A DNA stretch of 64,000 nt from Candidatus Hydrogenedentota bacterium (GCA_024278275.1 JAJRTN010000004.1:3149-67148), one strand, 5' to 3'. Positions 3,650-47,298 are shown, numbered from the stretch's first letter. Made by a program: numbers and translations. Notes: a model not told the origin generated them from the sequence alone.

Positions 3650-5362
3650 ATGGAACCATGCTCAAGACGCGACTTTCTAAAACAAACGGGCCTGGGCGCG
3701 GCCATGCTGGCGGCGGGCACGGCGGTAACAGCGGCGGCGAAAACCGCCAGGCCCAACATCGTCCTCTTCTACTTCGACGACCTCGACTTCGACGAGCTTG
3801 GCGTCTATGATCCCCTTGCCTTCCCAACCTATTCGGGGGCGCGGGAAAAGGGGCTGTTCCGGGAAGACATGAATCCCTGGCTCGCCTACCTCGATTCGCC
3901 CGCCATCCACACGCCCACCATCGACGGCCTGGCGCAGGACGGTGCGCGCTTTGATCACTTCTACGTGACCTCCACCATCTGCTCCCCCAGCCGCTACGCC
4001 CTGCTCACGGGCCGATACGCCAGCCGCAGCGACGGCGTGTGCCGTGATTTCCCGCCGGGCGGTCCGGCCAACGTGGTCCAGAACGCCCACCTGGGCCCCG
4101 GGGAAAGCAACATCGCCAAACGTCTCAAGGCCCAAGGCTACGCCACGGGCATGGTGGGCAAATGGCACAACTCCGATTGGGACGGCCCCCATGGCGGACG
4201 CGTGAAGGGCGTCGCACCCGACGCCGACCCGCGTGATCCGAAGGTGGCCGCGGCCATTCGCGAGGTCTACGATCGGGGCGTGAATTATATTCGTGAACGC
4301 CTGGGCTTCGATTACGTGTCGCGGGTTTACCTGCAGAACAAGGAAGCCCTGGGCATTCCCAGGGCGCTGCAAGTTCATAACCTGGAGTGGCTGGTGGAAG
4401 GGGCGCTGGAGTTCATTGACGCTCACCACGAGGCGCCTTTCTTCCTCTACTTCGCCAGCACCACGCCCCACGGCTGGGTCGGTTCCGCCGACTTCCTGAA
4501 GGCCGACCCGTGCGCCACGCCGGCGGGCATGCTCGACACCCCCCCCAAGGGCATGCCGCCCCGGGAAGATACGGCCCGTCGTGCCCGCGCCGCCGGGGTC
4601 AAAGGACGCCTCGTGGAGGCCACCTGGTTCGATGACGCCGTCGCCGCCGTACTCGGGCGCATCGAGAAACTCGGCCTGGCGGAGAACACGCTGGTCCTCT
4701 TCATCAGCGACCATCAGAACCGGGGCAAGCGGACCCTCTACGAAGCGGCGCGGGTTCCCGCCCTGGCACGCTGGCCGAAACGCATCGCGCCGGGACAAAC
4801 CATCGGCAGCCTCTGTGCCAATATCGATGTGGCGCCCACGTTGCTCGATGCCTGCGGCGCGCCCACCCCGGCGGGCGCGGACATGGACGGCCGGAGCTTT
4901 CTGCCCCTGCTGACCGGGCGGGGGGATAGCGTTCCCTGGCGTGAATCGCTCCTTCTCGAAGTGGCCTACGCCCGCGCGGTGGTCACGAAGGACTGGAAAT
5001 ACATCGCCCTGCGCTACCCGCCGAAACTCCGCGAGGCCATCGGGCAGGCTGAGCCGAAGACCTACGCTTGGGACGGCACGGCGAAGCGCGTCACCGCGGG
5101 CAACCGCTGGAACAAGAAGGGCGCGGTCTACATCCCCTACGGCGCCAACAAGGACTTTCCGGGCTACTTTGATCCGGACCAGCTATATGACCTCAAGCAT
5201 GATCCCTACGAGCAGAAGAACCTTGCCGAGGACCCGGCCTGCGCGGAACGGCTGGCGGAGATGAAGGCCCTGCTTTCGCGCCACCTGCAGGACCTCTCCC
5301 ACACCTTCGGCGAGTTCACGCGGGGTGACGGCCATGGAGAAACCAGAATGAGGGGAAAGTGA
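3650..5362 (+). CDS. Tat-exported formylglycine-dependent sulfatase (arylsulfatase family)
   Basis: N-terminal twin-arginine signal SRRDFLKQTGLGAAMLAAG. Sulfatase signature CSPSRYALLTGRY (C-x-P-x-R). 570 aa. Confidence 0.85.
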   Translation: MEPCSRRDFLKQTGLGAAMLAAGTAVTAAAKTARPNIVLFYFDDLDFDELGVYDPLAFPTYSGAREKGLFREDMNPWLAYLDSPAIHTPTIDGLAQDGARFDHFYVTSTICSPSRYALLTGRYASRSDGVCRDFPPGGPANVVQNAHLGPGESNIAKRLKAQGYATGMVGKWHNSDWDGPHGGRVKGVAPDADPRDPKVAAAIREVYDRGVNYIRERLGFDYVSRVYLQNKEALGIPRALQVHNLEWLVEGALEFIDAHHEAPFFLYFASTTPHGWVGSADFLKADPCATPAGMLDTPPKGMPPREDTARRARAAGVKGRLVEATWFDDAVAAVLGRIEKLGLAENTLVLFISDHQNRGKRTLYEAARVPALARWPKRIAPGQTIGSLCANIDVAPTLLDACGAPTPAGADMDGRSFLPLLTGRGDSVPWRESLLLEVAYARAVVTKDWKYIALRYPPKLREAIGQAEPKTYAWDGTAKRVTAGNRWNKKGAVYIPYGANKDFPGYFDPDQLYDLKHDPYEQKNLAEDPACAERLAEMKALLSRHLQDLSHTFGEFTRGDGHGETRMRGK

Positions 5363-9282: not shown

Positions 9283-11652
9283 TCACCGTGCCCCATGTGC
9301 CGTGTCCACCGTATCACGCAGCAGGCCCGCGCCACACCAGGGGACCACGGAGCGGGCCTCCCGGACACCGTAATTGAACACCATGAAGCCGCCCGTATGC
9401 CGTTGACGGGTCCGCTTCACCTGTTCGATGAAGGTCAACATGGGGTCGCGGCCGGTCCAGAGACCCAGGCCGATGCCCGGATAGACCGGCACCTCGCCCG
9501 CCCAGGCCTGCTGTTGCCGGATCCAGGTGTCGAATTGCCCCGTACGCTCCGTGTAGTCCATGGGGCAGACGAAATCCAGGTACCCCGCGTCGCACCAGGC
9601 CTTCCAGTCCTGCCCCACCGTATCGCGGTGCGTGGGCCACGTGATAAAAACCGCGGCGGACACTTTCACTTTCAGGTGACGTTCCTTAACCGCCTTATGC
9701 ACCCCGGCGACGACCCGCGTGATCTGGTCGCGGCGGAAGTCCCCCCATGCCCGCCGCAGCTTCGGGTCCTCGCGCATAGCGGCGGGCCAGGGCGAAACCG
9801 AATGCCCCAGACGCGCTTCGAATCCCTGTCGGCATGCTTCGCTGAACGAGGCGTCCTCGTCGGGATAGCGGATGTAATCAAAGTGGAGGCCGTCCACGTC
9901 GTAACGTTCGGCCACCTCCAGCATGGCGGCAGTTTCCAGCGCCCGATTGTCTTCCCGGCAGGGGCACAGCCAATTCGCTTCCTCGCCGCCATCGAAGCGC
10001 ACCTGGGTCCGGCCGGTCTTTTTCATGCGTTCGCGGAAAGCCTTGGGCGCGTGCCCCGTCATGTTCCAGCAGACCTTCCAGTAGTGCAACTCGATCCCGT
10101 ACTTCTTGCAGGCCGCCAGACACTCCGCCAGTTGGTCGCCCCGCTCCGCCACCTCGGGCGCCACGGGAAGGACATCGCTTTCGTAATACGCCACGCCGCC
10201 CCAGGCCATGTTGGGAAAAAGGGCGGTGAAACCGTTCTCCGCCAACAGGCGTACCGCTTCATCCCAGGTCATGCCCTCCACGCCAAAAGGACTGTGACAC
10301 CAGAATCCCCGGAACTCTCCGGCTTCGGGCCGTTGCCGCCGGTAATAGGCTTCGAGCATGGATTGACGTATTGCGCCCGCGGCGCGCAGGGCGCCGGGAT
10401 AATCCCCGGCGGCGACCCGTGCATCCACCGTGGCCGTGGCGGGCGGCGGGGAAGCCAGCGCCTGGGCCAGGGTGTCCAACGCCGAAACAGCGTGCCGCGC
10501 CGCCATGGGCCAGGCTTCTGGATACAGGGCACCCACCATCGCCAACAGGAGCCGGGCCTGGTTCTCCCGGTCGTCGTCGAGCAGGATGTGGGTCATGTGC
10601 GCCCCCGTACCGGACACCAGCACGGCGGCTTCGCCCGTGGCCCGGCCCGTGCCGTCATGCCACCAGGCGGCCACGCGGGCCTTGTCCGCCACGGGTTCCA
10701 TGGCAATGATGTTCCACGAGTGCTGCCGCACTTCGTCGGGCAGTCCCATGACGCCACCATCGGCCGCGGGCCGGATCGATGCAAAACGCGCGCCGGGCCC
10801 GCTTTGCATGTGGCGTCCCCTTGTCATGCCCAGGGCGCGCGCCAGTTTCGGCGGGATGGCGTAAAAAGTGATTACCTTGCCGCCATCGGCAATGAACCGC
10901 AGCAAGGCCGCCTCCGTTCGTTCGTCCATGGAAGGACAATAGGGTACGATGATCAGGCGGTGCCCCGCCGGCATGGCCTCTGCCATATCCACATCACTCA
11001 ATGGGGCATGGGGAATGCCGTTAGCCTCAAGATAAGACGCCACCCGCCGGGCCGTTTCCAGGACCGTCCGCGCTTCGCCCGGCTCCGCGCTCACCGACCG
11101 CTGCGCCTGCAACACGGCCACGCCCGGCGTGGCGGGTATGACGGCGAAATCCGACAGCAGGAACGTGGTGTCCTTGTCCGAACCACGCCACGCGGAAATA
11201 CGGATGCGGTCGATGCGGCGCCAGCCCCCGGGCGCGCCCTCCGTCCGCATGGCCATCCGGGGAATAAACATGCGTTCCGGCTTTCCTCCCGTCCCTTCGG
11301 GCGCGAAACCCGCCGAATACCAGCCCGACGCGGTGTGCAGGTAGAACGAAAAGCGGCTTACCGGCATGGGATCATCACACTGAGAGGTAAAAACCATGCC
11401 CAAGGCCCCGGACAAATCCAGCGCCACCGCCCGATCCCAGGAAACACGCGGTTCGGTGGTTTCGGCGAAGTTACAGCGGAAGCGCAGCCTTTCCCCCCCC
11501 TCCGCCATCTCCACCTTCGGGGTCGGTTCGACGGGCTGCCAGGCCGAAGCCGTTTCGGTCAAATCCGGCAATGGCTGCGCCGAAACCGCGTCCAGCGTAC
11601 AACAGCAACCCAAGACCACCAGGAGCGCAATACGTCCCATACCGCTCACCAT
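9283..11652 (-). CDS. Secreted GHL10/DUF187-family glycoside-hydrolase-like protein
   Basis: GGGAGGG RBS and ATG at 11652. Signal peptide MVSGMGRIALLVVLGCCCTLDAVSA. Family-typical motifs GLHFDYIRYP and HYWKVCWN. The opposite-strand 823-aa ORF is Pro/Arg/Gly-rich shadow. Confidence 0.65.
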   Translation of the reverse strand: MVSGMGRIALLVVLGCCCTLDAVSAQPLPDLTETASAWQPVEPTPKVEMAEGGERLRFRCNFAETTEPRVSWDRAVALDLSGALGMVFTSQCDDPMPVSRFSFYLHTASGWYSAGFAPEGTGGKPERMFIPRMAMRTEGAPGGWRRIDRIRISAWRGSDKDTTFLLSDFAVIPATPGVAVLQAQRSVSAEPGEARTVLETARRVASYLEANGIPHAPLSDVDMAEAMPAGHRLIIVPYCPSMDERTEAALLRFIADGGKVITFYAIPPKLARALGMTRGRHMQSGPGARFASIRPAADGGVMGLPDEVRQHSWNIIAMEPVADKARVAAWWHDGTGRATGEAAVLVSGTGAHMTHILLDDDRENQARLLLAMVGALYPEAWPMAARHAVSALDTLAQALASPPPATATVDARVAAGDYPGALRAAGAIRQSMLEAYYRRQRPEAGEFRGFWCHSPFGVEGMTWDEAVRLLAENGFTALFPNMAWGGVAYYESDVLPVAPEVAERGDQLAECLAACKKYGIELHYWKVCWNMTGHAPKAFRERMKKTGRTQVRFDGGEEANWLCPCREDNRALETAAMLEVAERYDVDGLHFDYIRYPDEDASFSEACRQGFEARLGHSVSPWPAAMREDPKLRRAWGDFRRDQITRVVAGVHKAVKERHLKVKVSAAVFITWPTHRDTVGQDWKAWCDAGYLDFVCPMDYTERTGQFDTWIRQQQAWAGEVPVYPGIGLGLWTGRDPMLTFIEQVKRTRQRHTGGFMVFNYGVREARSVVPWCGAGLLRDTVDTAHGAR

Positions 11653-11802
11653 GCCATCCCTCCCGTCTTTGGATGCGGGAGTATAGCAGGTCCGGCTCGG
11701 TCCCGCAGATGGCACATGCTGCGCCATCCATAAATTGTTGCGTTGAGGCGGTTAATCGCTTACCAATGAAGTTCCGCACGAATTGACGCGAAAAGGGGTT
11801 CA

Positions 11803-11830: not shown

Positions 11831-12165
11831 CGGGTGTAAGGTGAACCTGTTTTCAGTACATCCCGGGGCACGTTGGCCCCCGAATGTGGAGGTGAGCTCC
11901 CGCCTTTTTTCGAGTCCCCCCCCTTGACGGATCCGTGAATCGCGTGTATCCTTATCATCCTAGGGTTAAATGACAGGTGGTTTGGTTCGGGTTTAACCCG
12001 GATGTTTCACCAACTTCGATGTGGCATGTGTGGATTGGGTCAGGCCAAAGGCCTGGTGAAGTGAGGCGGACGACGGCGTGTGGATACATGCCGCGTTCGT
12101 CGGGCGAAACAAGTCCTGGAGATGGCCCGGGATACGTGGGCGCAACAGGAGGCTGGTGAAGGATC

Positions 12166-12206
12166 CGGTTTAACGCCACCGGCCAAAGTTGAAACCGGCC
12201 TTTTTT
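12166..12206 (+). terminator. Candidate intrinsic terminator/attenuator hairpin followed by T6, in the leader of the PASTA-caspase gene
   Basis: ccggtttaac...gttgaaaccgg stem (one bulge) followed by cc-TTTTTT. No convincing ORF upstream in the 620-nt divergent intergenic region. Confidence 0.3.
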
Positions 12207-12351
12207 GTTATTGCGAAGGATGTCGAGCGACGGTGGCAATCTCCTATGCAAAGGCCTGTATTGGCACGTGAGTTCCTCTCTTTCTCGCAGTAACGGGCTT
12301 TTGTTGGTGGCGTTGGGTTATTTCGGAAAAAGAACGGGAAAGGTGGAGGTC

Positions 12352-14925
12352 ATGAAACACTATCGTTGGTTTTTGACGCTGGGGGCCCTGGTGAGCCTTG
12401 CTTTGGTGGGGTGTCCGCCGTCAATCGTTCCGGATGTGGTGGGCATGACGCAAGAGGCGGCGGAAGCCGCGATTGTCGCGGCCGGATTTTCCGTTGGTGC
12501 CGCGGCCGAGGAATACAGCGACACGGTGCCCGCGGGCGAGGTGATCAGCCAGGATCCGGCGGCGGGCGCCCACGCGGAACAGGGCAGTGTCGTGGCGCTT
12601 GTGGTGTCGATAGGACCCGAGTTAGAGGTGCAGGTTATTGAAGACACCAACCTGTCCACGGAGACGGGCCTAACGGACGGCGGGGTAACCCGCCAGGCCA
12701 CCCAGATGATGACCGGTACGGTGCCGAACCCGGCCGGCCCGGATGCCACCGAGTTCGAAGGCTCGGTGTTCCTGGTGCTTAATGGCGACAAGATCCCCGT
12801 CTCCGTCGTTCGCGAGACGGCGAAAACCGGCCAGGTGATCTACAAAAACGGCCAGGCCGAATTTCTCAACGATGCGGACCGCATCGCCCCGGAGACGGTC
12901 GAAGCCCTGTCCAAACAGGACGGTGCGTCGCTCTGGGTATTCCAGGTGACCTTCTCAGTGAACGCGGGACCGAATACGCTGCGTGTCGAGGTCTACGACC
13001 TGGAGGACTCCCTTTATGCACGCACGGAGGACTGGGATATTATCGGCGCAGTGGAGCCCACCAGCGTGGTCATCACCTTGTGGTGGGACACGAACCAGAC
13101 CGACATCGACCTGCATGTCAAGCAGTTCGACGAGGAAGGCACCGACGAGGGGCATTGCTATTACGCCAATCGGAGAGCGGGTGCCATGGAACTCGACTTC
13201 GACGACGTCAACGGCTTCGGCCCCGAGCATGTCACGGTCCCCGACGTGGTGGGGCACAAGCGTTTCGTCATTCGTGTCTACTACTACGCCGACCACAACG
13301 ACTCGGAAACCACGACGCCCACGCCGGTGCATATTACCGCGGAGGTGAATGGGGAAAACGAGCTGTCCGTGAGCAGCGTGCTGTCGTCGGAGAGCACCAA
13401 TTCCTCGTGGACCACGGGCGCGCATGTCTGGGAAGCGGGCGAGGTGGAGGCCTCGGGGGCGAATGTTTACACCATCAATCTGGCCGAGCCCGACCTGTCG
13501 GCCTGGCCCACGGTGAAGCTCACCATGAATGTCATGGATGAAGAGGGGGACCCGGTGGACGGGTTGACCGCGGACAACATTTACGTGATCAACTCCGGCA
13601 CCGCCATGTCGCCGATTACGGTGGCCGCGGCGAAAGCGGCCGGCGGCTATTCCCTCACCTATACCGATATTACCGCGGGTAAGCGCGATCTGTATGTCTA
13701 CATCTACAAGGCCGCGCAAAATGAAGGGGATCCCTCCGAGGGCGGCCTGTCGAATGTGCTCACCTATGGCAAGAATTACGGCGTGCTCGTCGGCTTGAAT
13801 GAATACCCCGCCGCATCGATGGACCCGGGCAACTTTTCCTGGGTCGGCGCCGCGGGCGGTGACTACGTGAACGTCACCGTGACCAAGACGCCCGACGGTC
13901 CCGGTGATTTCACCCTGATCTTCACCGATACCGAAGGCGGCACCAATCGGCCGGAGGTGAGTGTTACCCCCACCGCCATGGTGGGCGCGGCGTCACCTTA
14001 CCGCCTCAATTTCACCGAGCCGGCAAATTACGACGACTATGACCGGATCCAGGTGAAATACAAGAAGCAGTCCTGGTTGCAGGCCGCGGTGAAGGACGTG
14101 ACCGATATCAAGACCGCCCTCACCGGGACCTCCCTGGGGCAGGTCAACAACATGTGGACGGCGGCGGACTTCACCACCTACACCAACGCCGCCGCCAAGG
14201 AGGCCACCATTATCGACAAGATTAAGGCCATAGGCGGGGTGATGAAGAAATACGACCTCTTCTACTTCCACTTCTCCGGCCATGGCGCCAACGGCACCAC
14301 CGACGGCACCCAATACTTGTGCGCCTACGAGGATGCCAACTGGATCAGTGTCACCGACCTGTCGGCCGCGTTGGCCACCATACCCAAACCCGGCGCCACC
14401 AGCACCATTGCCAATGTGATCATCGGCATTGATGCCTGTCACAGCGGCAACTTTATCGACATGAAGCAGGTCTGCCTCTGCGACGACCCGGTACGGAACG
14501 AGCGGTGTCGAAACGTCGAGCCGCAGGCCGACACGCAAGAGAAGTATGACGGCCCCATATTGACCTTCCAGGAAGACCTGAAGGCCCTCACGGGAAACAA
14601 CCTCTTCGTGATGACGGCGGTGCCCGGCACCCATTCCGCCTGGGATGACACGTCCATCGGCGGCGCGGCCAACCCCGGGGGTAACGGCGTCTTCACCTAC
14701 TACCTCAAGCAGGGCATCAGCACCCAGGGCAAGTTCATGTCCGAGGTGGCCGCCAACACCAATCACGACACGTGGGTTACGGCCGAGGAAGCCTTCGCCT
14801 ACCTCGATCCCAAGGCCAACGCCCGCGTGACCACGGCCAACGGATTCCCCGCGGGTGCCGCGCAGGACCCGCAGGTCCTCGACAACAGCACCAGCAGCGT
14901 TACGCGGTTGGTCTACAACTGGTAG
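12352..14925 (+). CDS. Lipoprotein with an N-terminal PASTA domain, a DUF2135 (YfaP)-like region and a C-terminal caspase-like (peptidase C14) domain
   Basis: GGAGG RBS then ATG 12352. Lipobox LALVGC. PASTA consensus VPDVVGMTQEAAEAAIVAAGFSV...VISQDPAAGAHAEQGSVVALVVSIG. DUF2135-like WWDTNQTDIDLHVKQFDEEG...DFDDVNGFGPEHV. Caspase His-Cys dyad context FYFHFSGHGANG ... IGIDACHSGNF. Confidence 0.75.
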   Translation: MKHYRWFLTLGALVSLALVGCPPSIVPDVVGMTQEAAEAAIVAAGFSVGAAAEEYSDTVPAGEVISQDPAAGAHAEQGSVVALVVSIGPELEVQVIEDTNLSTETGLTDGGVTRQATQMMTGTVPNPAGPDATEFEGSVFLVLNGDKIPVSVVRETAKTGQVIYKNGQAEFLNDADRIAPETVEALSKQDGASLWVFQVTFSVNAGPNTLRVEVYDLEDSLYARTEDWDIIGAVEPTSVVITLWWDTNQTDIDLHVKQFDEEGTDEGHCYYANRRAGAMELDFDDVNGFGPEHVTVPDVVGHKRFVIRVYYYADHNDSETTTPTPVHITAEVNGENELSVSSVLSSESTNSSWTTGAHVWEAGEVEASGANVYTINLAEPDLSAWPTVKLTMNVMDEEGDPVDGLTADNIYVINSGTAMSPITVAAAKAAGGYSLTYTDITAGKRDLYVYIYKAAQNEGDPSEGGLSNVLTYGKNYGVLVGLNEYPAASMDPGNFSWVGAAGGDYVNVTVTKTPDGPGDFTLIFTDTEGGTNRPEVSVTPTAMVGAASPYRLNFTEPANYDDYDRIQVKYKKQSWLQAAVKDVTDIKTALTGTSLGQVNNMWTAADFTTYTNAAAKEATIIDKIKAIGGVMKKYDLFYFHFSGHGANGTTDGTQYLCAYEDANWISVTDLSAALATIPKPGATSTIANVIIGIDACHSGNFIDMKQVCLCDDPVRNERCRNVEPQADTQEKYDGPILTFQEDLKALTGNNLFVMTAVPGTHSAWDDTSIGGAANPGGNGVFTYYLKQGISTQGKFMSEVAANTNHDTWVTAEEAFAYLDPKANARVTTANGFPAGAAQDPQVLDNSTSSVTRLVYNW

Positions 14926-14947
14926 GCCGTTCATCGTGTGTTCATGC

Positions 14948-14989
14948 GTCCCCCGCGCGGAAGAGTGCGCGGGGGACGCTGTTTGTGTT
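14948..14989 (+). terminator. Rho-independent terminator
   Basis: cgtcccccgcgcg-gaagagt-gcgcgggggacg perfect GC-rich stem followed by ctgtttgtgtt, located 20 nt after the stop at 14925. Confidence 0.65.
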
Positions 14990-15053: not shown

Positions 15054-15959
15054 ATGCGCGGAAATCCAGTCACCCATGCGGCGATACTGACCGTGACACT
15101 GCTTCTGGCGGCCATCCCCGCCTGGGCCGGGGGCCGGAGCCGGGCGGAAGTCGCCGAGGCCCCCTGTGTTTACAACGCCTGGCATCGCGACACCCTCATC
15201 TATGTGGCCCTGTTCAACCCGGGGGATGCCCCCTTGTCGCTGGACGTGGCCGTGGGGACACACGACACGGCCAGGCGCATTTTCCTGCGCAGCCGTGTTG
15301 AACTGGGGGCACACACGTTCCAGGTGGTCAATTTCCCCGTGGCCGGGCGAACCACCCCGCGTGGGGACCGGCAACGGGCGGACCGGGTCTTCGTGGGCCG
15401 CCCCGGGGAGACGCCCGCCATGGGCGTCATTCAGAATGCCTATCCCCCCCGAAACGCGGTCTTCCTGCGCGACCTGCTGGTTCCGTCAGGCGGCCCGGTT
15501 CGCTACGACTATTGGCCGGAGAAGCGCGCGGGGACGACCCTGCTTTTCCTGCCACGCGTTTTGGGCGAAGGTACGGGCGACGAAAGGAACGGTGATACCG
15601 CCACGTGTTCCCCGCCCCCGATCTCAAGCCGGGCGCTGGCCGGTTTGGCGTTGCCGGCGGCTTACCGCGACGAGATCCTCGCCAGGGCGAAAGACCATTT
15701 TGTCTTTCGGATTGACCATGGGGCCGGGATACCCGTCTCGGTCACCTATCCCGCGCCGAATGTCTCCCAATGCGCCAATCTCACGATTCACGCCTACCGG
15801 TACCGCCTCCATGAGGATGGCACGTTGCGTGCCGGAGGCGAGGCCGGCGCCGTCATCACCGTCTATAACCCTGCAACGATTCAGCACGCTCTTTCCTCCC
15901 CATCACCCGGCGCCATCGGCAAGAAGCCGCTTCCCACGAAAAGCAAAGGGAAATCGTAA
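15054..15959 (+). CDS. Hypothetical secreted protein
   Basis: Signal-peptide-like N-terminus MRGNPVTHAAILTVTLLLAAIPAWAGG. No recognisable domain. Confidence 0.4.
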   Translation: MRGNPVTHAAILTVTLLLAAIPAWAGGRSRAEVAEAPCVYNAWHRDTLIYVALFNPGDAPLSLDVAVGTHDTARRIFLRSRVELGAHTFQVVNFPVAGRTTPRGDRQRADRVFVGRPGETPAMGVIQNAYPPRNAVFLRDLLVPSGGPVRYDYWPEKRAGTTLLFLPRVLGEGTGDERNGDTATCSPPPISSRALAGLALPAAYRDEILARAKDHFVFRIDHGAGIPVSVTYPAPNVSQCANLTIHAYRYRLHEDGTLRAGGEAGAVITVYNPATIQHALSSPSPGAIGKKPLPTKSKGKS

Positions 15960-16135: not shown

Positions 16136-17263
16136 TTATGCCAGCGGCGCGTGCTCGAAGGTCTCGATGATCCCGGCACAAAGCACGTAGCCCGCCTCGT
16201 CATAGCACACGGCCCACTGTCCGGGGGTTACCGCCTGTTCAACCCGCTTCAACTCGATGCGTGCTGCCCGGCCCATGGGGATTACCCGCGCCGGTACCCC
16301 CTCGTGGCGGGAGCGAAGCTGCACCCGGCCGTCGAAAGGTTCCGGTGCTGGGGCCATCCCGCCCCAGCACAGGGGCCCCGTGGTGAAACGGGCGCAGCCG
16401 GTTTCTTCCACGTGGCCGACGATTACCGCGTTCCGTTCGGGGTCGAGGCGGACCACGTAGTAAGGCCGTTCCGCCGCGATACCCAGTCCGCGCCGTTGCC
16501 CCAGGGTATGGTGGATGAGCCCCCGGTGCTCCCCGATAACATCGCCCCGCGTGTTCAACACGGGACCGGGACGGCTTGCCCCCGCCCGGGCCTCGACGAT
16601 CTTCGCGTAATCGCGGTCCGGCACGAAGCAGATTTCCATGCTTTCCGCTTTGTCGGCCGCAGGAAGGTTCAGCGCCCGCGCATGATTCCGCACCTCTTCC
16701 TTCGTCAACGCCCCCAGGGGGAAAAGGGCGCGCTTCAATTGCGGCTGGGTCAGCGGCGCGAGTACGTAACTCTGGTCCTTCGGCCGATGGACGGCCCGCC
16801 GCAGGGACCAGCGTGTACCCCGTTTTTCAAGCCGCGCATAATGCCCCATGGCAATATAGGCGGCCCCCAGCCGGTCGGCGTAGCGATAGAGCGCCCCAAA
16901 TTTAATCATTCGGTTGCAGCGTGCACAGGGATTCGGCGTCCGTCCCCGGGTGTACTCGCTCACGAAGTAGCGAATAATGTCACGGTCAAAGCGCTCGACG
17001 GCATGCATGATTCGGTGCGGAATACCAAGCTTTTCACAAACGCGCCGTGCATCCGAGGCGGCTTCAAGACCACAGCAGGGCTCGAAAACGGACTTCTCCC
17101 CGTGCTCCGGCACCAGGCGCATGGTGACGCCGATGCAGTCGTACCCACGGGCCGTCAGCAGGGCGGCGGTGACGGCGCTGTCCACCCCGCCACTCATGGC
17201 AACGAGAATTCTCGCGGATGGGGGAGGGTACATGCTGTTTGATCGCCGCGTTGCTTCAGGCAC
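16136..17263 (-). CDS. mnmA: tRNA-specific 2-thiouridylase MnmA
   Basis: PP-loop SGGVDSAVTAALL. Conserved Cys residues. Approximately 365 aa. An alternative start at the internal MYPPPS (17233) is possible. Confidence 0.85.
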   Translation of the reverse strand: MPEATRRSNSMYPPPSARILVAMSGGVDSAVTAALLTARGYDCIGVTMRLVPEHGEKSVFEPCCGLEAASDARRVCEKLGIPHRIMHAVERFDRDIIRYFVSEYTRGRTPNPCARCNRMIKFGALYRYADRLGAAYIAMGHYARLEKRGTRWSLRRAVHRPKDQSYVLAPLTQPQLKRALFPLGALTKEEVRNHARALNLPAADKAESMEICFVPDRDYAKIVEARAGASRPGPVLNTRGDVIGEHRGLIHHTLGQRRGLGIAAERPYYVVRLDPERNAVIVGHVEETGCARFTTGPLCWGGMAPAPEPFDGRVQLRSRHEGVPARVIPMGRAARIELKRVEQAVTPGQWAVCYDEAGYVLCAGIIETFEHAPLA

Positions 17264-17669
17264 GGGGGGCGGCGGACGCCGCGGACGCGGACACCGCTTT
17301 GGGCGGACGTTGGGCCGGGGCTTTCATGGCGCACTTGCCTTCGAAGAGCACCCCCTCGGCGATGCTGATACGGGGCGCGCTGATGTCGCCCGTCACCTTG
17401 CCGCCGGAGGTGATCTCAATGCGCTCGCGGGCCGTGACGTTGCCACGCACCTCGCCCGCGATGATGATCTGCGTGGCAATGAGATCCGCCTTGACCTTGC
17501 CCGTTTCCTGCACGACAATGCTGTCGGCGCAGTCAATGCGCCCGGTCACCGTGCCCTCGATACGCAGGGTGCCTTCCGAGTGAATCTCGCCATGGACAGC
17601 CGTCCCCGGCCCCACCATGCTGACAACACGGTTTTCGTTGTAACCCTTGCCTTTACGTGAATCCAGCAT
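17256..17669 (-). CDS. Bactofilin (CcmA-like cytoskeletal polymer)
   Basis: Beta-helical bactofilin repeats GTLRIEGTVTGRIDCADSIVVQETGKVKADLIATQIIIAGEVRGNV... Confidence 0.8.
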   Translation of the reverse strand: MLDSRKGKGYNENRVVSMVGPGTAVHGEIHSEGTLRIEGTVTGRIDCADSIVVQETGKVKADLIATQIIIAGEVRGNVTARERIEITSGGKVTGDISAPRISIAEGVLFEGKCAMKAPAQRPPKAVSASAASAAPRA

Positions 17670-17674
17670 GGCGG

Positions 17675-18682
17675 TTAATCCGGAAGGTACTTGCGGGGAT
17701 CGACCGCCTTGCCGCGGACCCGCACCTCGTAGTGCAAGTGGGGCCCCGTGCTTCGGCCCGTGCTCCCCACGCTGCCAATGCGATCGCCCGGCTCCACCTG
17801 CTGTCCCTCTTTCACCAACAACTTGGAAAGATGGGCAAACCGTGTCTGGATGCCGTTCCCATGATCCACCGTGATCAGCCGGCCATAATCGCCGTCGTAG
17901 CCCGCGAACACCACCACGCCCCGTCCCGTGGCATAAACCGGCGTCCCTCGCGGCGCGGCAATGTCCGAACCCGAATGAAGCCGCACGCGCCGGGTAAAAG
18001 GATCGCGGCGGTAACCGAATTGGGAGGAATAACGGCCCGCGCCCCGGCGGACGGGACGTCCCGTTGGAACACGTGCCACCTGGTCGTTGTGGACCTTCAT
18101 ATCGGCCACCAGCTCGGACAGGCTGTTGGTGCGCACCCGGATCTAGCGCAGAATCAGGTCCGCCGAAGGGCGAAGCATGCCATAGATGACTTGAGGCGGA
18201 CGGTATTTCGCCTCCACCGCCGTGAAGCCAACCCCCTGCTCACCCGTCAGCGGGCCGCCCTTACCCCCTCCCCCGCCCGACGCGGAGGCGTCTTGGCCGG
18301 TCTCGCGGGGTTCCAACAGATGGATTTCACGCGCCTTGGCCTCCATGTCATGGAGTTCCGCCAATTCCGCCGTAATAGCCGCGATACTGCTCTCGTAGTC
18401 GAGGCTCATGCGGGCCTCGATTGCTTTCAACTCCGCATCCGATATACCGGCCTGAGAAACGGTTTGGGGCGTACTGGCCAGTCGCCACTCCAGCGCACGG
18501 ATGTGCTCCCGGCGGACCTGGGCATTTCGCGCCTGCTTCCGGTCGCGCTGGTAGAAAAACGCCGTCGAAAAAACCAATAAGGCAAGCAGGGACACCCCCC
18601 CCCAGAAATGCAGGCTCGAAAGGTTTAGTGTTCTGGTGCTGCCCCGGTCATGGGGAATCAGCATCACGGTCCACTTCTTCAT
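17675..18682 (-). pseudogene. M23/LytM-family peptidase (TM + coiled-coil N-domain, C-terminal LytM domain) interrupted by an in-frame TAG at 18143-18145
   Basis: ORFs 18143-18682 (TM helix, coiled coil) and 17675-18136 (LytM domain with HxxxD and HLH motifs: LHSGSDIAAP, PHLHYEV) are in the same frame, separated by TAG + 6 nt. Domain order matches intact EnvC/Csd1-type proteins. Confidence 0.65.
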
Positions 18683-32025: not shown

Positions 32026-32114
32026 CCCACACACCGCCCCTTGACACCTGAACATATATTCAGTATAATTTGCAGTGGCCAAGGACACAGGCAAAGGAGG
32101 AAAGGGGTATTCCC

Positions 32115-34718
32115 ATGAGGATGATCGAACTTATGCGCTATGACGTGCCGCCGGAGGTGATTGCTTTGTGGCGGGAACGGGAAAGCGACACGCTGCTGCC
32201 GTTGCAGGAAATGGCGGTGAAGCGCTACAGGCTCTTTGAGAAGGGCAATCGCCTGATCCAGGCGCCCACCAGCTCGGGCAAGACCTTTATTGGCGAAATG
32301 GCGGCGCTCCAGACGGCCATGCGGCGGAAGAAGGTGGTCTACCTGGTGCCCTTGAAGGCCCTGGCCGAGGAGAAGTACCACGACTTCCGGGAGAAATACG
32401 AAAGCTATGGTTTGAAGGTCATCGTTTCGAGCCGGGATCGACGGGAGTTCGACCGCGACCTGGAGACGGGGGATTTCTCCATCGCGGTGGTGGTGTATGA
32501 AAAGCTGTCGCAGCTCCTCGTGCGTCGCCCGGAGCGGCTGGAAGAGATAGACCTTATTATCGCGGACGAGTTGGAAATCCTGTCGGACCCGGAGCGGGGC
32601 GCCATGGTGGAGTTGCTGCTTACGCGCATTCTGCAGTCGGCGTGTCGTCTCATCGGGTTGTCGGCGGTGATCGGCGAGGCGGAACGGTTGGCCCGGTGGA
32701 TGAAGGCGGAGTTGCTCCATTACGACCGGCGGCCGGTGGAACTGCGCTACGGCGTGCTCCACGAAGGGGTCTTCCGTTATCGCACCTACAACGATTGCGC
32801 CGAGGGCGAGGAAAGCCTGGTGGACGCCCATGGGGAGTCCACTTGGGAAGGGGTGATCCAAAACGTGTGCGCTTTCGTTGCGCGGGGGGAGACCTGTCTC
32901 ATATTCGTGAAGGCCAAGCACGAATCGCGGCGGGGGGCGGAATTGCTCAAAGACCGCCTCCATGAACCCGCCGCGACGGAGGCGGTGGAGAAACTGCGCG
33001 GCCTTGAAGCGACGCGGTCGCGGGACGCACTGATCGAGTGCATGAACCAGGGTGTGGCCTTTCATAACGCGGATCTTTCACAGGCGGAACGTCTCGTGGT
33101 GGAAGAGGCCTTTCGAAAGGGCGAGGTGAAACTCATGATTTCAACGAGCACCCTCGCGGTGGGATTGAACATGCCGGCGCGGAATGTTTTCCTTACCCCG
33201 GAGAAATGGCGCTATGATCAACGCCTTGACATGCCGTGGAAGACGCCCATCCTGCATACGGAATACGAGAACATGGGCGGCCGCGCGGGGCGCTACGGCG
33301 CGGGCCATGCCTTTGGCCGGTCGATCCTGGTCGCCGCGACGCCCTTCGATTTCGAGACCCTGTGGCGGCGCTACATACAGGGGGAACGGGAAAGTATCGA
33401 GCCCCGCCTGGCGAAGGAGCCGCTGGAAAACCACGTGCTCCGCCTGGTGGCCTCCCGCTTCTGCCGAACCCTGGCGGAACTGTTGACCTTTCTGGAAAAC
33501 ACCCTCACGGGCCGGTGGATTTGGGCCGAGACCTTCACCCTGGAGGAGATCGCGTTTCGCATCCGCGCCGCCGTCAATCGCTGCATCGACGCGGGGGTGC
33601 TCACGTCGAACGAGGGGGGCCGCCTGGAGGCCACGCCTTTCGGGCTGGCCATCGCCTCGAAGGGTATTTGCATTGCCACGGCGCGGGAACTGGAGCATTG
33701 GATCAGTGAATCCGAAACGCGGGAGTGGAGCGATATCGATCTCATTTTCGCCGCCGCCGTCACGCCCGACGGGCGCATGTTCCAGGTGATGCTTACAGCG
33801 CGGGAGTATGAGCACGCCGACTATACGGGCCGCATCAGGCGTCACACGGTCCGGGACGACCTCGCCGCCGACACGCCCCTGAACCGAATCCGAAAGGGCA
33901 ACCTCACGCCCTTCTTCGAGGAGGTGCGGGCCATCAAGATCGCCCTGTTCCTCGAACACTGGATCGCGCAGGAACCCGTTCACGGCCTGGAAGAGCAGTT
34001 TCACACCATGTCCGGGCAGATCGTGTCCGCCGCGCAGCAGATCAGTTGGCTTCTCGACGCCACGGCCACCATCGCTTCCGCCCTCGGGGGAAAAAAGACC
34101 TTTATCACGCGCATCCGTCTCCTTTCCGAGCGGCTCCAGTACGGGGTGCTGGAGGAGACGCTTCCCCTGGCCCGGCAACGTCTCGCGAAGGGACGACGCG
34201 GCGTGGTACTGGAGATGGCGCGTGCGGGGCTTCACACGCCGGAGGCCCTGGCCGGGGCGTCCGAGGCCCAACTCCGGCCCTGGCTGAAACCCGCGGCAAT
34301 TCGCCGGCTCCAGGAATGGGCGCGGACCCAATGCCGGTCCCGGAAGCACCCGGCGGCGGAGACCGCCTCAAGCCCGGCCCCGGTTCTCGTGGTGGACGAC
34401 CGCCAGCCGGATCGTATCGAACTCGATGGGAAAGTGGTTATCCTGCAGGAAAAGCAGTACTGCCTCATTCGAATCCTGGCCGCCACGCCGGGGCAGTGCG
34501 TGCCCTACGACACGATCTACGCGGCCCTATGGGGCGATACCGTGGTGGAGAACAACCAGATGCACTACCAGAAGCAGAACCTGCTCAAGCGGATCCGATC
34601 CACGGTTCCGGACCGCGCCAACCTGGTCCGCACCATCCCCAAACGCGGTTTTGTCCTGGATCTCCCGGAGGAGGCGGTGCGCTGCCCGGAAAGCCCGGCC
34701 ATGTCTCCCGCCGCATGA
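32115..34718 (+). CDS. Ski2/Hel308-like DExH helicase fused to a C-terminal HhH motif and an OmpR/CadC-type winged-helix (trans_reg_C) DNA-binding domain
   Basis: AAGGAGG RBS and ATG 32115. Walker A APTSSGKT. DExH-type motif IIADELEIL. Helicase C-domain motifs. HhH-like LEMARAGLHTPEALAGA. C-terminal wHTH VVILQEKQYCLIRILAATPGQCVPYDTIYAALWG...LVRTIPKRGFVLD. Confidence 0.75.
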   Translation: MRMIELMRYDVPPEVIALWRERESDTLLPLQEMAVKRYRLFEKGNRLIQAPTSSGKTFIGEMAALQTAMRRKKVVYLVPLKALAEEKYHDFREKYESYGLKVIVSSRDRREFDRDLETGDFSIAVVVYEKLSQLLVRRPERLEEIDLIIADELEILSDPERGAMVELLLTRILQSACRLIGLSAVIGEAERLARWMKAELLHYDRRPVELRYGVLHEGVFRYRTYNDCAEGEESLVDAHGESTWEGVIQNVCAFVARGETCLIFVKAKHESRRGAELLKDRLHEPAATEAVEKLRGLEATRSRDALIECMNQGVAFHNADLSQAERLVVEEAFRKGEVKLMISTSTLAVGLNMPARNVFLTPEKWRYDQRLDMPWKTPILHTEYENMGGRAGRYGAGHAFGRSILVAATPFDFETLWRRYIQGERESIEPRLAKEPLENHVLRLVASRFCRTLAELLTFLENTLTGRWIWAETFTLEEIAFRIRAAVNRCIDAGVLTSNEGGRLEATPFGLAIASKGICIATARELEHWISESETREWSDIDLIFAAAVTPDGRMFQVMLTAREYEHADYTGRIRRHTVRDDLAADTPLNRIRKGNLTPFFEEVRAIKIALFLEHWIAQEPVHGLEEQFHTMSGQIVSAAQQISWLLDATATIASALGGKKTFITRIRLLSERLQYGVLEETLPLARQRLAKGRRGVVLEMARAGLHTPEALAGASEAQLRPWLKPAAIRRLQEWARTQCRSRKHPAAETASSPAPVLVVDDRQPDRIELDGKVVILQEKQYCLIRILAATPGQCVPYDTIYAALWGDTVVENNQMHYQKQNLLKRIRSTVPDRANLVRTIPKRGFVLDLPEEAVRCPESPAMSPAA

Positions 34719-45099: not shown

Positions 45100-47298
45100 C
45101 TACACCAGCAGGTTAAGCCCCTTCGCGGACAGGTAGTCCCGCGGACGCCGCGTGCCCGTTCCCGGCGTCCCGGAATAGGTCCGGGAAGCCGAAGCGGCCG
45201 GGTGCCACCATCCGCGAGGCGCATGGGCCTGCCCGCCGTTATCGCGTCCCATGGAACCACCGCCCGGTTCCGGGTGGGACCCCATGTGAGCGCTTACATC
45301 CACCCGCGACAGGTGTGTTCCGTCGCGTGCGAGGGCCTCCCGCAATGCGGGCACGTGAACTTCCATCACATCCCGAACCACGGGACTGGCGGATACGAGC
45401 CGAACGCTGACTTCGCCCTTCCGGCCGCGGACTTCCACGTGAAGTTCCCCCAGGGATTGGGGGACCAGCCGAATCCGGACGCGCTGTCCACCGCCGGCCA
45501 GCAGGCTTTTCACCTGCCGAACCGTCTCCTCGCCCAACGACTCCAGGGAGACGCGGGAAGGGGAGTCACCGGCATGACTGACGGCCGGCGGCGATGGGTG
45601 CCCGTCCGCCGCCCGAACCGTCACGCCTTCGGCGTGGGACACGGGCGCGACCGGCCCGTTCTCAACACGGACGTGGGCTTCGCCGGACACGGGGTGCCGC
45701 AACGGAACCGTTTTTTCCGTTTCGGGCGCCTGGGCCGTGTCCCGCTGTGACGCGACACGCGCCGCCGCCACGTTCACACTGTCCCGTGTTACGGAACGAA
45801 AGTTCGCTTCCGTCACCACGGGTTTCGCGGAGCCTTCAACCACGCGCAGCGCCGATTTCACGGCAAACGGTTCCGGTTTCGTCACGGTATCCGCCGCCAC
45901 AGCCTTCGGTGCCGCGACAGGTTCCTTCGCCGATTCCACCACCGGGGTTGCCGAAGGCAAACCAGATGGTGCCGCCACCGTCTCGCTTGTAACGGTCGTC
46001 AAAATGACCGGACGGGCCGAAGCCGTGCCGTTCACCTCGATGCTCCGAAACACCGGGGCCGGGGATTCCGACCTGGCCACCATCTTCCCGGTATCCGCTT
46101 TGGACGAAAGGACCGTTACCACCGGCCCCTTCGGCGCCGCAGCATCCATAGGAACACCCCTGTCGGCCAGCTTGGCATCACGACCCGCCGCCATGGCACC
46201 GGCCCGTGACAGGTCGACCACCGGCACGACCCGGGCGGGCCGGGCTTCCACCGGGCGGGCCGCCGCGTCGGTCAAAGACACCTTCGTGGCTTTCGACGGC
46301 ACGTCGGCCGTTTCGACCGCTTCGCCTGCGAATGCTGCCACGGGGGCGGTCTTCGCGGGGGGTGACGATGAAACCCAAACCCCGGTTTCATCAATCGCCG
46401 GTGAGACTGCCGGAGCGCTCGCCGCTTCCACGCCGCGAGGCACGGAAACCCGCGGAGCAGGACCGTTGTCCGTGCCCGTTTCACCGGCGACGATAAAAGC
46501 GGCACGTTCCGACCCGGCCGCCACCTTGGTTTGGGCCGGTGCGGGATTCGAAGCGGCCTGGGACCGCCTCGGTACGACAAGTTCCGGCATCACGGGCGGT
46601 GGTTCAGTGGACGGAACCCGTGGTTTTGTGCCATCACCCGTGGCGCGCCCGGTGAACTCGGCGGCCGCCCCGGTAGCGGACCCGGCCGGAATTGCTTCAC
46701 CGGGACTCGTCCGGGGCGTGACGGCCAGATCTCTCAGCGCGGAGGACCGGGTAAGCCGGAAGGGAGCCGGTGCCTCACCCGTGTGGTTTTCCGCTTCCTC
46801 CGAGAGAAACCCAGCGGAAGCCATTGCCACCTCGGCGTTTGGCGCTTGAACACTTTCCACCGCCACCACCGAATTTTCGGCCGTGCCGGATTCAAGCACC
46901 GTTCCCTCCACGGATGCAAGGTCCGAGACAGGCACCATGCCTGTCTGGTCCGTGGGTGCCGGGGCCGCAAGGACATCCTCGCCACTCGCTGACGGTGGCG
47001 AAGGTGGGACACTTGCGTTCTCCACCTCACCGGACGCGGCCAGGGCCGTTGAAAGCGCCTGACCCGTCTCTCCGGCGTCCGCAACCTCGGGCAGGCTCCC
47101 GCTCGGGCTTTCGTCTTCCACGGCGCTTTCCTCGACCGTGTCCTGCGAAGGTTCAGGCGGGACGATTCCCTGGAAGGACGCAAGCAATTCGCCGAACGCC
47201 TCCTCCGGGATATCGCGCTTTGCCTTTCCTGTTTCCGGCCCTGCTGAAGAAGCGGCGTCAGAAGAAGGCTGAAGCATCTGTAACAAGTTTACATACAT
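45100..47298 (-). CDS. fliK: Flagellar hook-length control protein FliK (long Pro/Ala/Val-rich spacer, C-terminal Flg_hook domain)
   Basis: C-terminal RIRLVPQSLGELHVEVRGRKGEVSVRLVSASPVVRDVMEVHVPALREALARDGTHLSRVDV. Confidence 0.7.
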   Translation of the reverse strand: MYVNLLQMLQPSSDAASSAGPETGKAKRDIPEEAFGELLASFQGIVPPEPSQDTVEESAVEDESPSGSLPEVADAGETGQALSTALAASGEVENASVPPSPPSASGEDVLAAPAPTDQTGMVPVSDLASVEGTVLESGTAENSVVAVESVQAPNAEVAMASAGFLSEEAENHTGEAPAPFRLTRSSALRDLAVTPRTSPGEAIPAGSATGAAAEFTGRATGDGTKPRVPSTEPPPVMPELVVPRRSQAASNPAPAQTKVAAGSERAAFIVAGETGTDNGPAPRVSVPRGVEAASAPAVSPAIDETGVWVSSSPPAKTAPVAAFAGEAVETADVPSKATKVSLTDAAARPVEARPARVVPVVDLSRAGAMAAGRDAKLADRGVPMDAAAPKGPVVTVLSSKADTGKMVARSESPAPVFRSIEVNGTASARPVILTTVTSETVAAPSGLPSATPVVESAKEPVAAPKAVAADTVTKPEPFAVKSALRVVEGSAKPVVTEANFRSVTRDSVNVAAARVASQRDTAQAPETEKTVPLRHPVSGEAHVRVENGPVAPVSHAEGVTVRAADGHPSPPAVSHAGDSPSRVSLESLGEETVRQVKSLLAGGGQRVRIRLVPQSLGELHVEVRGRKGEVSVRLVSASPVVRDVMEVHVPALREALARDGTHLSRVDVSAHMGSHPEPGGGSMGRDNGGQAHAPRGWWHPAASASRTYSGTPGTGTRRPRDYLSAKGLNLLV

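Follow-up and report, generated by a model that had tools for sequence, protein, structure and literature searches.

Introduction

Bacterial caspase homologues are numerous, almost none of them has a known substrate, location or regulator, and they are usually discussed as cytoplasmic death enzymes. The metacaspases AtMC4 (6W8S), TbMCA2 (4AFR) and Yca1 and the orthocaspase MaOC1 combine the caspase fold and its catalytic dyad with an acidic S1 pocket (motifs CVND, SGHG and DxC), and regulation goes through a linker with a basic residue. Orthocaspases cleave after basic residues (PMC6426788). Here we describe a gene for a relative of these enzymes in a 64,000-nucleotide (nt) stretch of DNA from a Candidatus Hydrogenedentota bacterium (GCA_024278275.1, JAJRTN010000004.1:3149-67148), which we call the window and number from its first letter. 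The gene, at 12352..14925 on the plus strand, encodes a predicted lipoprotein in which a PASTA head and a beta-sandwich stalk precede a metacaspase-type domain. Its product resembles the proteins named above in fold, dyad and S1 acids at 10-16% identity, but the metacaspases and MaOC1 are cytoplasmic, whereas the window protein is predicted to be exported and lipid-anchored.

The best solved relative, by sequence profile and by fold alike, is the orthocaspase-like protein GSU0716 of Geobacter sulfurreducens (3BIJ). PMC3734836 classes it as a "bacterial type I metacaspase", composed of a p20 region, a linker of about 50 amino acids (aa) and a p10 region. The two proteins have in common the SGHG and DxCHSG motifs and a linker of about 50 aa with a YR..PQ motif, and neither has a prodomain. 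GSU0716 is a stand-alone domain of 285 aa, to which the window protein adds an anchor, a PASTA domain, a stalk of about 380 aa, a module of about 81 aa and a partner gene.

Homologous extracytoplasmic PASTA domains occur in the kinases PknB and PrkC/Stk1 and in class B penicillin-binding proteins (E=1e-17 for Staphylococcus aureus PrkC). Muropeptide binding has been described for the PASTA domains of these two kinases (PMC3145798, PMC5786024, PMC3601408). Peptidoglycan binding is nevertheless lacking in many PASTA units, which serve as rulers or protein-interaction modules (PMC7654742); a rule cited there distinguishes binders, with Arg or Glu where strand beta'1 ends, from non-binders, with Pro. 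Compared with the kinases and penicillin-binding proteins, the window lipoprotein has one membrane-proximal, N-terminal PASTA domain and no kinase or transpeptidase, and the nearest counterparts of this domain are the tandem arrays found in surface proteins of Hydrogenedentota. A5ECX2 of Bradyrhizobium (PMC3355149, Coggill & Bateman 2012) likewise unites an exported C14 domain with a proposed peptidoglycan-binding domain. It differs in that its YARHG domain is helical and forms a C-terminal tandem, in having no stalk, and in that no conserved partner is reported.

Two further systems are useful for comparison. Escherichia coli YfaP, a small stand-alone periplasmic protein of the alpha-2-macroglobulin-like operon yfaA-yfaT-yfaS-yfaQ-yfaP and a member of the family from which DUF2135 was defined, shares the motifs W-D-T-[DN]-x-T-D-[LI]-D-L-H-V and D-x-D-x-x-x-G-[YF]-G-P-E with a domain that in the window is a module of the protease stalk. 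In staphopain-staphostatin operons, the gene for a cysteine protease is followed by one for a dedicated beta-barrel inhibitor. In the window family, too, a cysteine protease gene comes first and is immediately followed by a small gene for an all-beta partner, and the two are strictly inherited together. We treat this as an analogy only: staphopain belongs to clan CA and staphostatins are cytoplasmic, whereas the window partner is exported, larger and made of two domains.

A first-pass annotation of the same sequence had proposed that the lipoprotein is a protease gated by a cell wall signal. Below, we show what the gene and its relatives have in common, and then weigh this proposal against others.

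Results

The open reading frame (ORF) runs from the ATG at 12352 to the TAG at 14923-14925 and encodes 857 aa, and an identical protein, P0001, is recorded at NCBI on a 132-kb contig. A strong Shine-Dalgarno sequence, AAGGTGGAGG, can be read at 12340..12349 (+) and ends 2 nt before the ATG, supporting 12352 as the true start. The N terminus, MKHYRWFLTLGALVSLALVGC, carries the basic residues K2, H3 and R5, then a hydrophobic core, then the lipobox L-V-G-C (aa 18-21, with Cys21). In a rule-based reading, this is the basic n-region, h-region and lipobox [LVI][ASTVI][GAS]C of a signal peptidase II lipoprotein signal peptide (12352..12414, +). We aligned 42 sequences of relatives at 40-76% identity, and all conservation counts given here refer to this alignment. 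The lipobox Cys is present in roughly half of these homologues; the others have a signal sequence and a Gly-rich linker. The ORF and the signal reading agree with the lipoprotein proposed earlier, and we take the protein to be extracytoplasmic and, by prediction, lipid-anchored. NCBIfam matches to the 857-aa protein are partial, at the level of domains, and agree with Pfam.

The C-terminal region (13759..14922, +) is a metacaspase-type domain (C14, clan CD) made of a p20 region, a linker of about 49 aa and a p10-like region, as assigned by Pfam, PDB profiles and Foldseek. Pfam PF00656 (Peptidase_C14) matches aa 569-794 with E=3e-9 and 37.3 bits, against a gathering cutoff of 21.4. A PDB profile search returned GSU0716/3BIJ (2.4e-9), AtMC4 (7.5e-7) and TbMCA2 (8.6e-6), and its alignments place the SGHG and DxCHSG motifs in register with 3BIJ and AtMC4. 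The AlphaFold2 (AF2) model has a mean predicted local distance difference test score (pLDDT) of 77.6, rising to about 85-96 in the p20 core. Foldseek matched it at probability 1.0 to AtMC4 (6W8R/S), 3BIJ/GSU0716, MALT1, TbMCA2 and caspase-1, and the modelled structure has the caspase-hemoglobinase fold.

The predicted catalytic residues lie in FHFSGHGA (aa 639-646) and IDACHSGNF (aa 693-701). His644 (14281..14283, +), in S-G-H-G, aligns with the SGHG of 3BIJ and AtMC4. Asp694-Ala-Cys696 (14431..14439, +) would provide the catalytic Cys and, two residues before it, an S1-pocket Asp; it aligns with the D-S-C-H-S-G of AtMC4 and 3BIJ, and Asp211 of TbMCA2 is the equivalent Asp. Invariant in 42/42 sequences are G643-H644-G645, D694-A695-C696 and G699-N-F701, together with D582, D585, D765 and N778-G-x-F781, while S642 is conserved in 41. 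Such invariance of the dyad, its flanking glycines and the S1 acids would be expected if the enzyme is active, and the peptidase is apparently active. The His-Cys dyad and caspase fold of the first-pass annotation are thus borne out by an HMM score above cutoff, by conservation and by structure prediction.

The name caspase-like needs refinement. The S1 pocket of TbMCA2 consists of Cys92, Asp95, Ser156 and Asp211 (PMC4357240), for which the CVND, SGHG and DxC motifs give A579, D582, S642 and D694 as equivalents in the window protein. Asp582 (14095..14097, +), a predicted S1-pocket acid on helix alpha1, corresponds to TbMCA2 Asp95 and to the D of AtMC4 CVND. This mapping of D582, S642 and D694 points to Arg or Lys at P1, as in metacaspases and orthocaspases, and not to Asp. 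The caspase fold of the earlier description therefore stands, but the enzyme is better called metacaspase- or orthocaspase-like.

Between p20 and p10, the linker (aa 702-750; 14455..14601, +) has low pLDDT and carries the motif [KR]-x-R720-x-x-x-P-Q. R720 is found in 41/42 sequences and Q725 in 40/42, and the YR..PQ motif aligns in 3BIJ as well. The 3BIJ match runs through the linker, which is followed by conserved aa 751-857, so that the p20-linker-p10 layout is that of GSU0716. R720 is the likely candidate for an autoprocessing or self-inhibitory site. Three cysteines in the same linker, at aa 708, 710 and 719 (QVCLCDDP...ERCR, 14455-14520), occur only in the subclade that unites P0002 and P0003 with the window protein; if the protein is exported, disulfides could form between them.

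The domain had been said to hold an insertion of about 150 aa. Extra residues are indeed present, but they belong to two elements, the linker of about 49 aa and a beta-rich module of about 81 aa (aa 487-567; 13810..14052, +) that the AF2 model places between strand beta1 and helix alpha1. Strand beta1 is NYGVLVGLNEYP (aa 475-486), with G473, Y476, Y485 and P486 invariant, and lies about 90 residues upstream of the start of the Pfam C14 match. In the model, strands spanning 484-553 are placed between beta1 (475-481) and alpha1 (579-591). When aa 488-567 are removed in silico, the Pfam match starts at model position 5 where it had started at 11, and it scores 42.8 bits where it had scored 39.7; the relatives at loci L026, L027 and L008 naturally lack the module. 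It is this deletion and this natural absence that resolve the insertion into two elements.

Downstream of the protease gene is a conserved partner gene (15054..15959, +), which the first-pass annotation missed along with the hairpin described below. This previously unannotated ORF encodes a 301-aa protein of two beta-sandwich domains that belongs to no known family and is predicted to be secreted, with a signal peptide ending AWA|GGR; conserved arginines of the partner lie in GGR and PRGD. In 21/21 informative non-redundant loci, the window included, the caspase gene is followed directly, in the same orientation, by a homologue of the partner, for example at 12376-13320 in L001 and 10089-10973 in L012, and also in L003-L007 and L013-L027. 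These loci come from metagenome-assembled genomes (MAGs) labelled Nitrospirales, Bacteroidota, Desulfarculia, Syntrophobacterales and Thermodesulfobacteriota. The partner is missing only at contig ends (L002 and L028) and in relatives of about 31% identity (L008 and L009), and we found no other neighbours conserved across the loci. An exhaustive HMMER search was used to find partner homologues, since a word-indexed search returned the partner alone; the family has 25 representatives among 1.84 billion proteins. Its fold resembles tandem-Ig scaffold proteins such as RbmA. We considered a relation between the partner and a head of about 450 aa found on the protease relatives P0026 and P0032, and rejected it (hhalign probability 3.5%, with the signal peptide alone aligned).

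The two genes are separated by a GC-rich stem-loop (14946..14979, +), found by terminator scan and folding, whose 14-bp stem includes 12 G-C pairs and after which comes TGTTTGTGTT. The 128-nt spacer as a whole folds at z=-4.66. An equivalent hairpin, with a stem of 10-18 bp, begins 0-12 nt past the protease stop codon in 21/21 non-redundant loci across phyla, and each ranks in the top 0-0.7% of the 44-nt windows of its own locus. Many of the stems have a common core, GGCCCGCYYCC...GGRRGCGGGCC, while those of the window, L001, L003 and L024 are unrelated in sequence. Compensatory changes occur at 4/7 consensus pairs, in an alignment in which MAFFT misaligns several divergent stems and whose sequences were picked as hairpin-forming. 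Because of this imperfect alignment and this selection, formal support from covariation is weak. No Rfam family matches the hairpin, and most of the hairpins have no U-tract. In L006, the ribosome-binding site of the partner gene follows directly after the hairpin, which leaves no room for a promoter. We infer an intra-operon element that would set the ratio of protease to partner, through either partial termination or stabilisation of the 3' end of the upstream mRNA.

A homologue search with the window protein splits in two, with one set of matches to a core (aa ~92-857) and another to the PASTA segment only, the latter including many from Candidatus Hydrogenedentes. The first set comprises about 50 proteins from MAGs with the labels Bacteroidota, Syntrophales and Deltaproteobacteria; the fullest annotation that any of them has is "caspase family protein". 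In all, about 60 relatives from several phyla share the core of about 760 aa, and none of them has a PASTA domain. In front of the core, they carry a lipobox or signal with a Gly-rich linker, an FN3 domain, an Ig-like domain (P0003, 68% identity) or the beta-repeat of about 450 aa of P0026 and P0032. The closest relative, P0002 at 76% identity, has the lipobox LGNVGC, a 20-residue linker and then the core, with no PASTA. Its database entry is N-terminally truncated and without Pfam annotation because an assembly gap of Ns (7950-7962 in L012; GCA_964456765.1, CAYWCQ010000010.1) splits the gene into calls of 139 and 672 aa.

The PASTA domain itself (aa 25-86; 12424..12609, +) is a single copy and a clear match to Pfam PF03793, with E=2e-17 and 63.3 bits against a gathering cutoff of 23.2, over model positions 2-63 of 64. 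PDB PASTA units of S. aureus PrkC and Mycobacterium tuberculosis PknB match it with E=1e-17 to 3e-16. Among the solved structures, the match is good to the membrane-proximal units of PrkC and PknB and poor to PASTA4 of PknB. Searching with the PASTA segment by tblastn gave hits in 0/30 related loci from reference genomes and metagenomes, and among the 120 matches listed, the window protein is the only one to combine PASTA with C14. A literature search found no description of this combination; the one paper with both terms concerns C14 with YARHG (PMC3355149). The first-pass annotation was thus right to call the architecture unusual. Among the sequences retrieved it is a singleton, a one-off replacement of the head on a pre-existing modular family of exported metacaspase-type proteases.

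The likely source of the head is the host lineage. The window PASTA is 54-70% identical to repeats of PASTA-array proteins from Hydrogenedentes. In Hydrogenedentota, PASTA forms tandem arrays of 5-15 copies in large secreted proteins, often directly after a lipobox, fused to EF-hands and to PKD, LamG-like, beta-propeller, FGE-sulfatase and beta-lactamase-family domains. P0069 has a lipobox, 8 PASTA repeats and a subtilase (S8), and P0058 joins PASTA arrays to a metzincin-like HExxH domain, HEVGHTLNLGHDG; PASTA fusions to proteases of other catalytic classes therefore already exist. We found no further PASTA ORFs within the 64-kb window. PASTA is a general-purpose, promiscuous extracellular repeat in Hydrogenedentota, and since the same subtype sits on many unrelated effectors, a swapped-in tether or spacer is a better reading than a dedicated sensor. 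Most simply, a lineage-typical extracellular module has probably been shuffled into a variable head position, where it would act as a tether or spacer at the wall.

The conserved core begins with the stalk, and homologues align from aa ~92-96 onward. The first beta-sandwich (aa ~95-235; 12634..13056, +) is all-beta in the AF2 model, with pLDDT of about 80-90, and matched no Pfam family. It is followed by a YfaP-like beta domain (13072..13344, +) with the motifs WWDTNxTDIDLHV and DFDDVNGFGPEH, identified by BLASTP and hhalign. In BLASTP, residues 145-230 of E. coli YfaP align with 241-331 of the window protein over 94 aa, with 37% identity and a pairwise E=6e-13. Against the family profile, hhalign matches YfaP with a probability of 96.9% (E=1.7e-10). 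This segment had been described as DUF2135-like. Pfam PF09906 matched neither the whole protein (E<=1) nor the isolated segment (E<=10), because this model of 48 positions covers only YfaP 199-244 and the recognised motifs lie upstream of it. The alignments thus argue for true homology to the C-terminal domain of YfaP, but strict membership in DUF2135 does not hold. A literature search on DUF2135 found nothing. An Ig-like beta-sandwich (aa ~375-468; 13474..13755, +), seen in the AF2 strands, completes the stalk; a weak match to Big_1 (E=0.026) is below threshold, and no significant family was found. Foldseek matches of the stalk are strings of Ig-like domains such as those of the adhesins PrgB, FdeC and Cna. 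The stalk is modular: L025 lacks the YfaP-like domain, and L026, L027 and L008 lack the module of about 81 aa in the caspase domain.

We then turn to the surroundings of the two genes. Divergent from the protease gene, across a region of 620 nt, lies a gene for an 814-aa GHL10/DUF4015 glycoside-hydrolase-like protein (9283-11727, -), overlapped by a spurious antisense ORF of 823 aa (+) typical of high-GC DNA. On the other side, past the partner, is a block of M23-peptidase, bactofilin and mnmA genes (16136-18682, -). None of the GHL10, mnmA, bactofilin and M23 genes is linked to the protease module in other genomes. A related metagenomic contig, L033, is syntenic with the block over its positions 1-2247, with 76% nucleotide identity over M23-bactofilin-mnmA and an MnmA that is 85% identical. 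This synteny breaks off precisely where mnmA ends (window 16137), with unrelated genes beyond, which places the protease module in a variable region. This location and the patchy distribution of the module across phyla hint at horizontal spread. The best named relatives of the window MnmA (64-68% identity) are exclusively Candidatus Hydrogenedentes/Hydrogenedentota. Elsewhere in the window, we noted genes for a sulfatase-family protein (3650-5362, +) and a Hel308-like helicase (32070-34718, +), as well as the flagellar genes for a FliK-like protein (45100-47298, -) and FliF (51585-53144, -), which fit a motile Hydrogenedentota bacterium. A PADLOC scan of the neighbourhood found no set of defence-system proteins, and a scan for tRNA and tmRNA found nothing.

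Conditional expression had been proposed from two motifs upstream of the protease gene, and neither rises above chance. The sigma-54-like site, TGGCACGTGAGTTCC at 12262-12276, has one mismatch (TTCC), at the G that is conserved in the -12 GC element. The window holds 9 such one-mismatch sites against 5.6 +/- 2.4 expected, and 15/100 shuffles reach 9. With the -12 G lost and the frequency that of chance, we reject a sigma-54 promoter here. The proposed terminator, a hairpin plus T6 at 12150-12206, is rejected as well; its folding is unremarkable (z=-0.91 against shuffles), and it is not among the calls of the terminator scan. The case for conditional expression falls with these motifs. In the same divergent region, a 258-nt stretch (11953-12210, +) that ends in T6 folds at z=-3.13, with 1/200 shuffles as good. 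It lies between a T-run and a sigma-70-like site that is itself not enriched over chance, has no Rfam match and is not conserved in relatives; a small RNA or a structured leader might be encoded here. The upstream DNA has no similarity to that of the closest relatives. Rfam found nothing at gathering thresholds in the whole window, nor at E<=5 in the upstream region; the best hit, wcaG at E=0.42, is noise.

Discussion

We lean toward the view that the locus encodes a lipid-anchored, metacaspase-type protease with a partner module, in which PASTA is an exchangeable head or tether and not a switch. The gene would produce an extracytoplasmic cysteine protease of metacaspase/orthocaspase type with the layout of GSU0716, its catalytic domain held at the far end of a rigid beta-sandwich stalk that includes one unit homologous to YfaP. 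The His644/Cys696 dyad, with an acidic S1 pocket of Asp582, Ser642 and Asp694, is predicted to cleave after Arg or Lys, and Arg720 in the disordered linker would likely serve in autoprocessing or self-inhibition. The protease and the downstream partner appear to form a conserved two-gene module in which the partner most likely regulates the protease specifically, as its inhibitor or chaperone, or else serves as a docking factor or a substrate, and the stem-loop between the genes probably sets their relative expression. The head between anchor and stalk seems interchangeable, and here one PASTA copy would have replaced it. This copy most likely tethers or spaces the anchor-proximal end at the cell wall layer and would not switch the protease.

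Several points weigh against this view. The protease family is known solely from sequence and predicted structure, and both the Arg/Lys specificity and the autoprocessing derive from alignment to metacaspases at 10-16% identity. Position 579 of the window protein is Ala, whereas 34/42 relatives and the metacaspases (TbMCA2 Cys92) have Cys. The PASTA segment was modelled at low confidence, with pLDDT of 29-55 over aa 1-90 and a single predicted helix (34-43). This low confidence arises because the other rows of the alignment have no PASTA and so give it no depth over the segment, and the domain may yet bind muropeptides or even exert allosteric control. The generic fold of the partner makes its role a guess. 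Where the spacer is long, as in the window (128 nt), the hairpin could be a plain terminator and the partner separately transcribed.

A different physiological role for much the same enzyme has to be considered first. The protein may be a protease for nutrition or envelope maintenance, comparable to gingipains, whose partner is a subunit for substrate capture or docking and not an inhibitor. Gingipains are surface enzymes of clan CD with an S1 Asp (PMC4357240), and the predicted Arg/Lys specificity and lipid anchoring of the window protein are similar. FN3 and Ig-like heads are typical of surface enzymes, and most hosts of the family are MAGs with the labels Syntrophales, Desulfarculia, Thermodesulfobacteriota and Bacteroidota. 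Exposure at the surface is presumed, however, and the module is linked neither to peptide-uptake genes nor to any other conserved neighbours. We regard this role as rather unlikely, while noting that it overlaps with the tethered protease and partner favoured above and differs from it in physiology alone.

More speculatively, and with comparably low expectation, the stalked exported metacaspase, the stem-loop and the secreted partner may together be a previously undescribed envelope proteolytic system. The partner would then be a cognate inhibitor, activator or substrate of an Arg/Lys-specific protease, the head would determine where the enzyme is deployed, and PASTA would couple it to peptidoglycan. 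If true, this would be the first metacaspase linked physically, and possibly functionally, to the cell wall.

The proposal of the first-pass annotation went further, with PASTA sensing muropeptides or uncrosslinked peptidoglycan and gating the protease allosterically, leading to wall-dependent proteolysis, remodelling or death. Its extracytoplasmic, lipid-anchored protease is retained in our view, but its gating is not. The PASTA domain is genuine, those of PknB and PrkC bind muropeptides (PMC3145798, PMC5786024, PMC3601408), the unique fusion to C14 could be a lineage-specific innovation, and PMC3355149 describes a secreted C14 protein that carries YARHG, a putative peptidoglycan-binding domain. 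Against this, relatives without PASTA (at 76% and 68% identity, and about 60 others) keep the core, the dyad, the partner and the hairpin. Regulation of the enzyme thus needs no PASTA. The domain adjoins the lipid anchor and is separated from the catalytic domain by about 380 residues and three beta-sandwich domains, and the same subtype is generic, found on many unrelated effectors. It is nearer to the membrane-proximal units of PknB and PrkC than to PknB PASTA4, and many PASTA domains do not bind peptidoglycan (PMC7654742). A sensing role has no specific support, a peptidoglycan-gated mechanism or cell-wall-gated death switch is not supported by these data, and we consider wall gating improbable.

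Less probable again is a surface adhesin or scaffold, in which the caspase fold would bind ligands or be a pseudo-enzyme, and the stalk would join with the partner in a structural assembly. Ig-like sandwiches that resemble the stalks of PrgB, FdeC and Cna make up over half of the protein, the partner is like the tandem-Ig scaffold RbmA, and pseudo-orthocaspases do exist in bacteria (PMC6426788). There, however, the His and Cys are replaced by Tyr and Ser, whereas in the present family His644, Cys696, their flanking glycines and the S1 acids stay invariant in 42/42 sequences, down to 40% identity. Finally, we give very little credence to a module for anti-phage defence, abortive infection or programmed cell death, akin to the caspase-like proteases that activate bacterial gasdermins or associate with CRISPR or with cyclic-oligonucleotide-based anti-phage signalling systems (CBASS): a generic PADLOC "caspase" model (E=1.6e-12), PD-T4-6 models, the variable region and the patchy distribution across phyla speak for it, but the PD-T4-6 matches are limited to the PASTA domain, the partner has no PADLOC match and is not gasdermin-like, no other neighbours are conserved across loci, and the export signals on both proteins indicate that the protease acts outside the cytoplasm.

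For the field of bacterial caspase homologues, the locus offers a concrete enzyme-partner pair for an extracytoplasmic metacaspase, in an exported family with a modular stalk and a conserved RNA hairpin. The PASTA variant and its PASTA-less relative at 76% identity amount to a natural head-swap experiment, which asks whether a single PASTA domain can localise or regulate an unrelated enzyme at the cell wall. The case is also a warning that function cannot be read from one eye-catching domain fusion. The trio of protease, hairpin and partner is the more general and more testable finding than the PASTA fusion.

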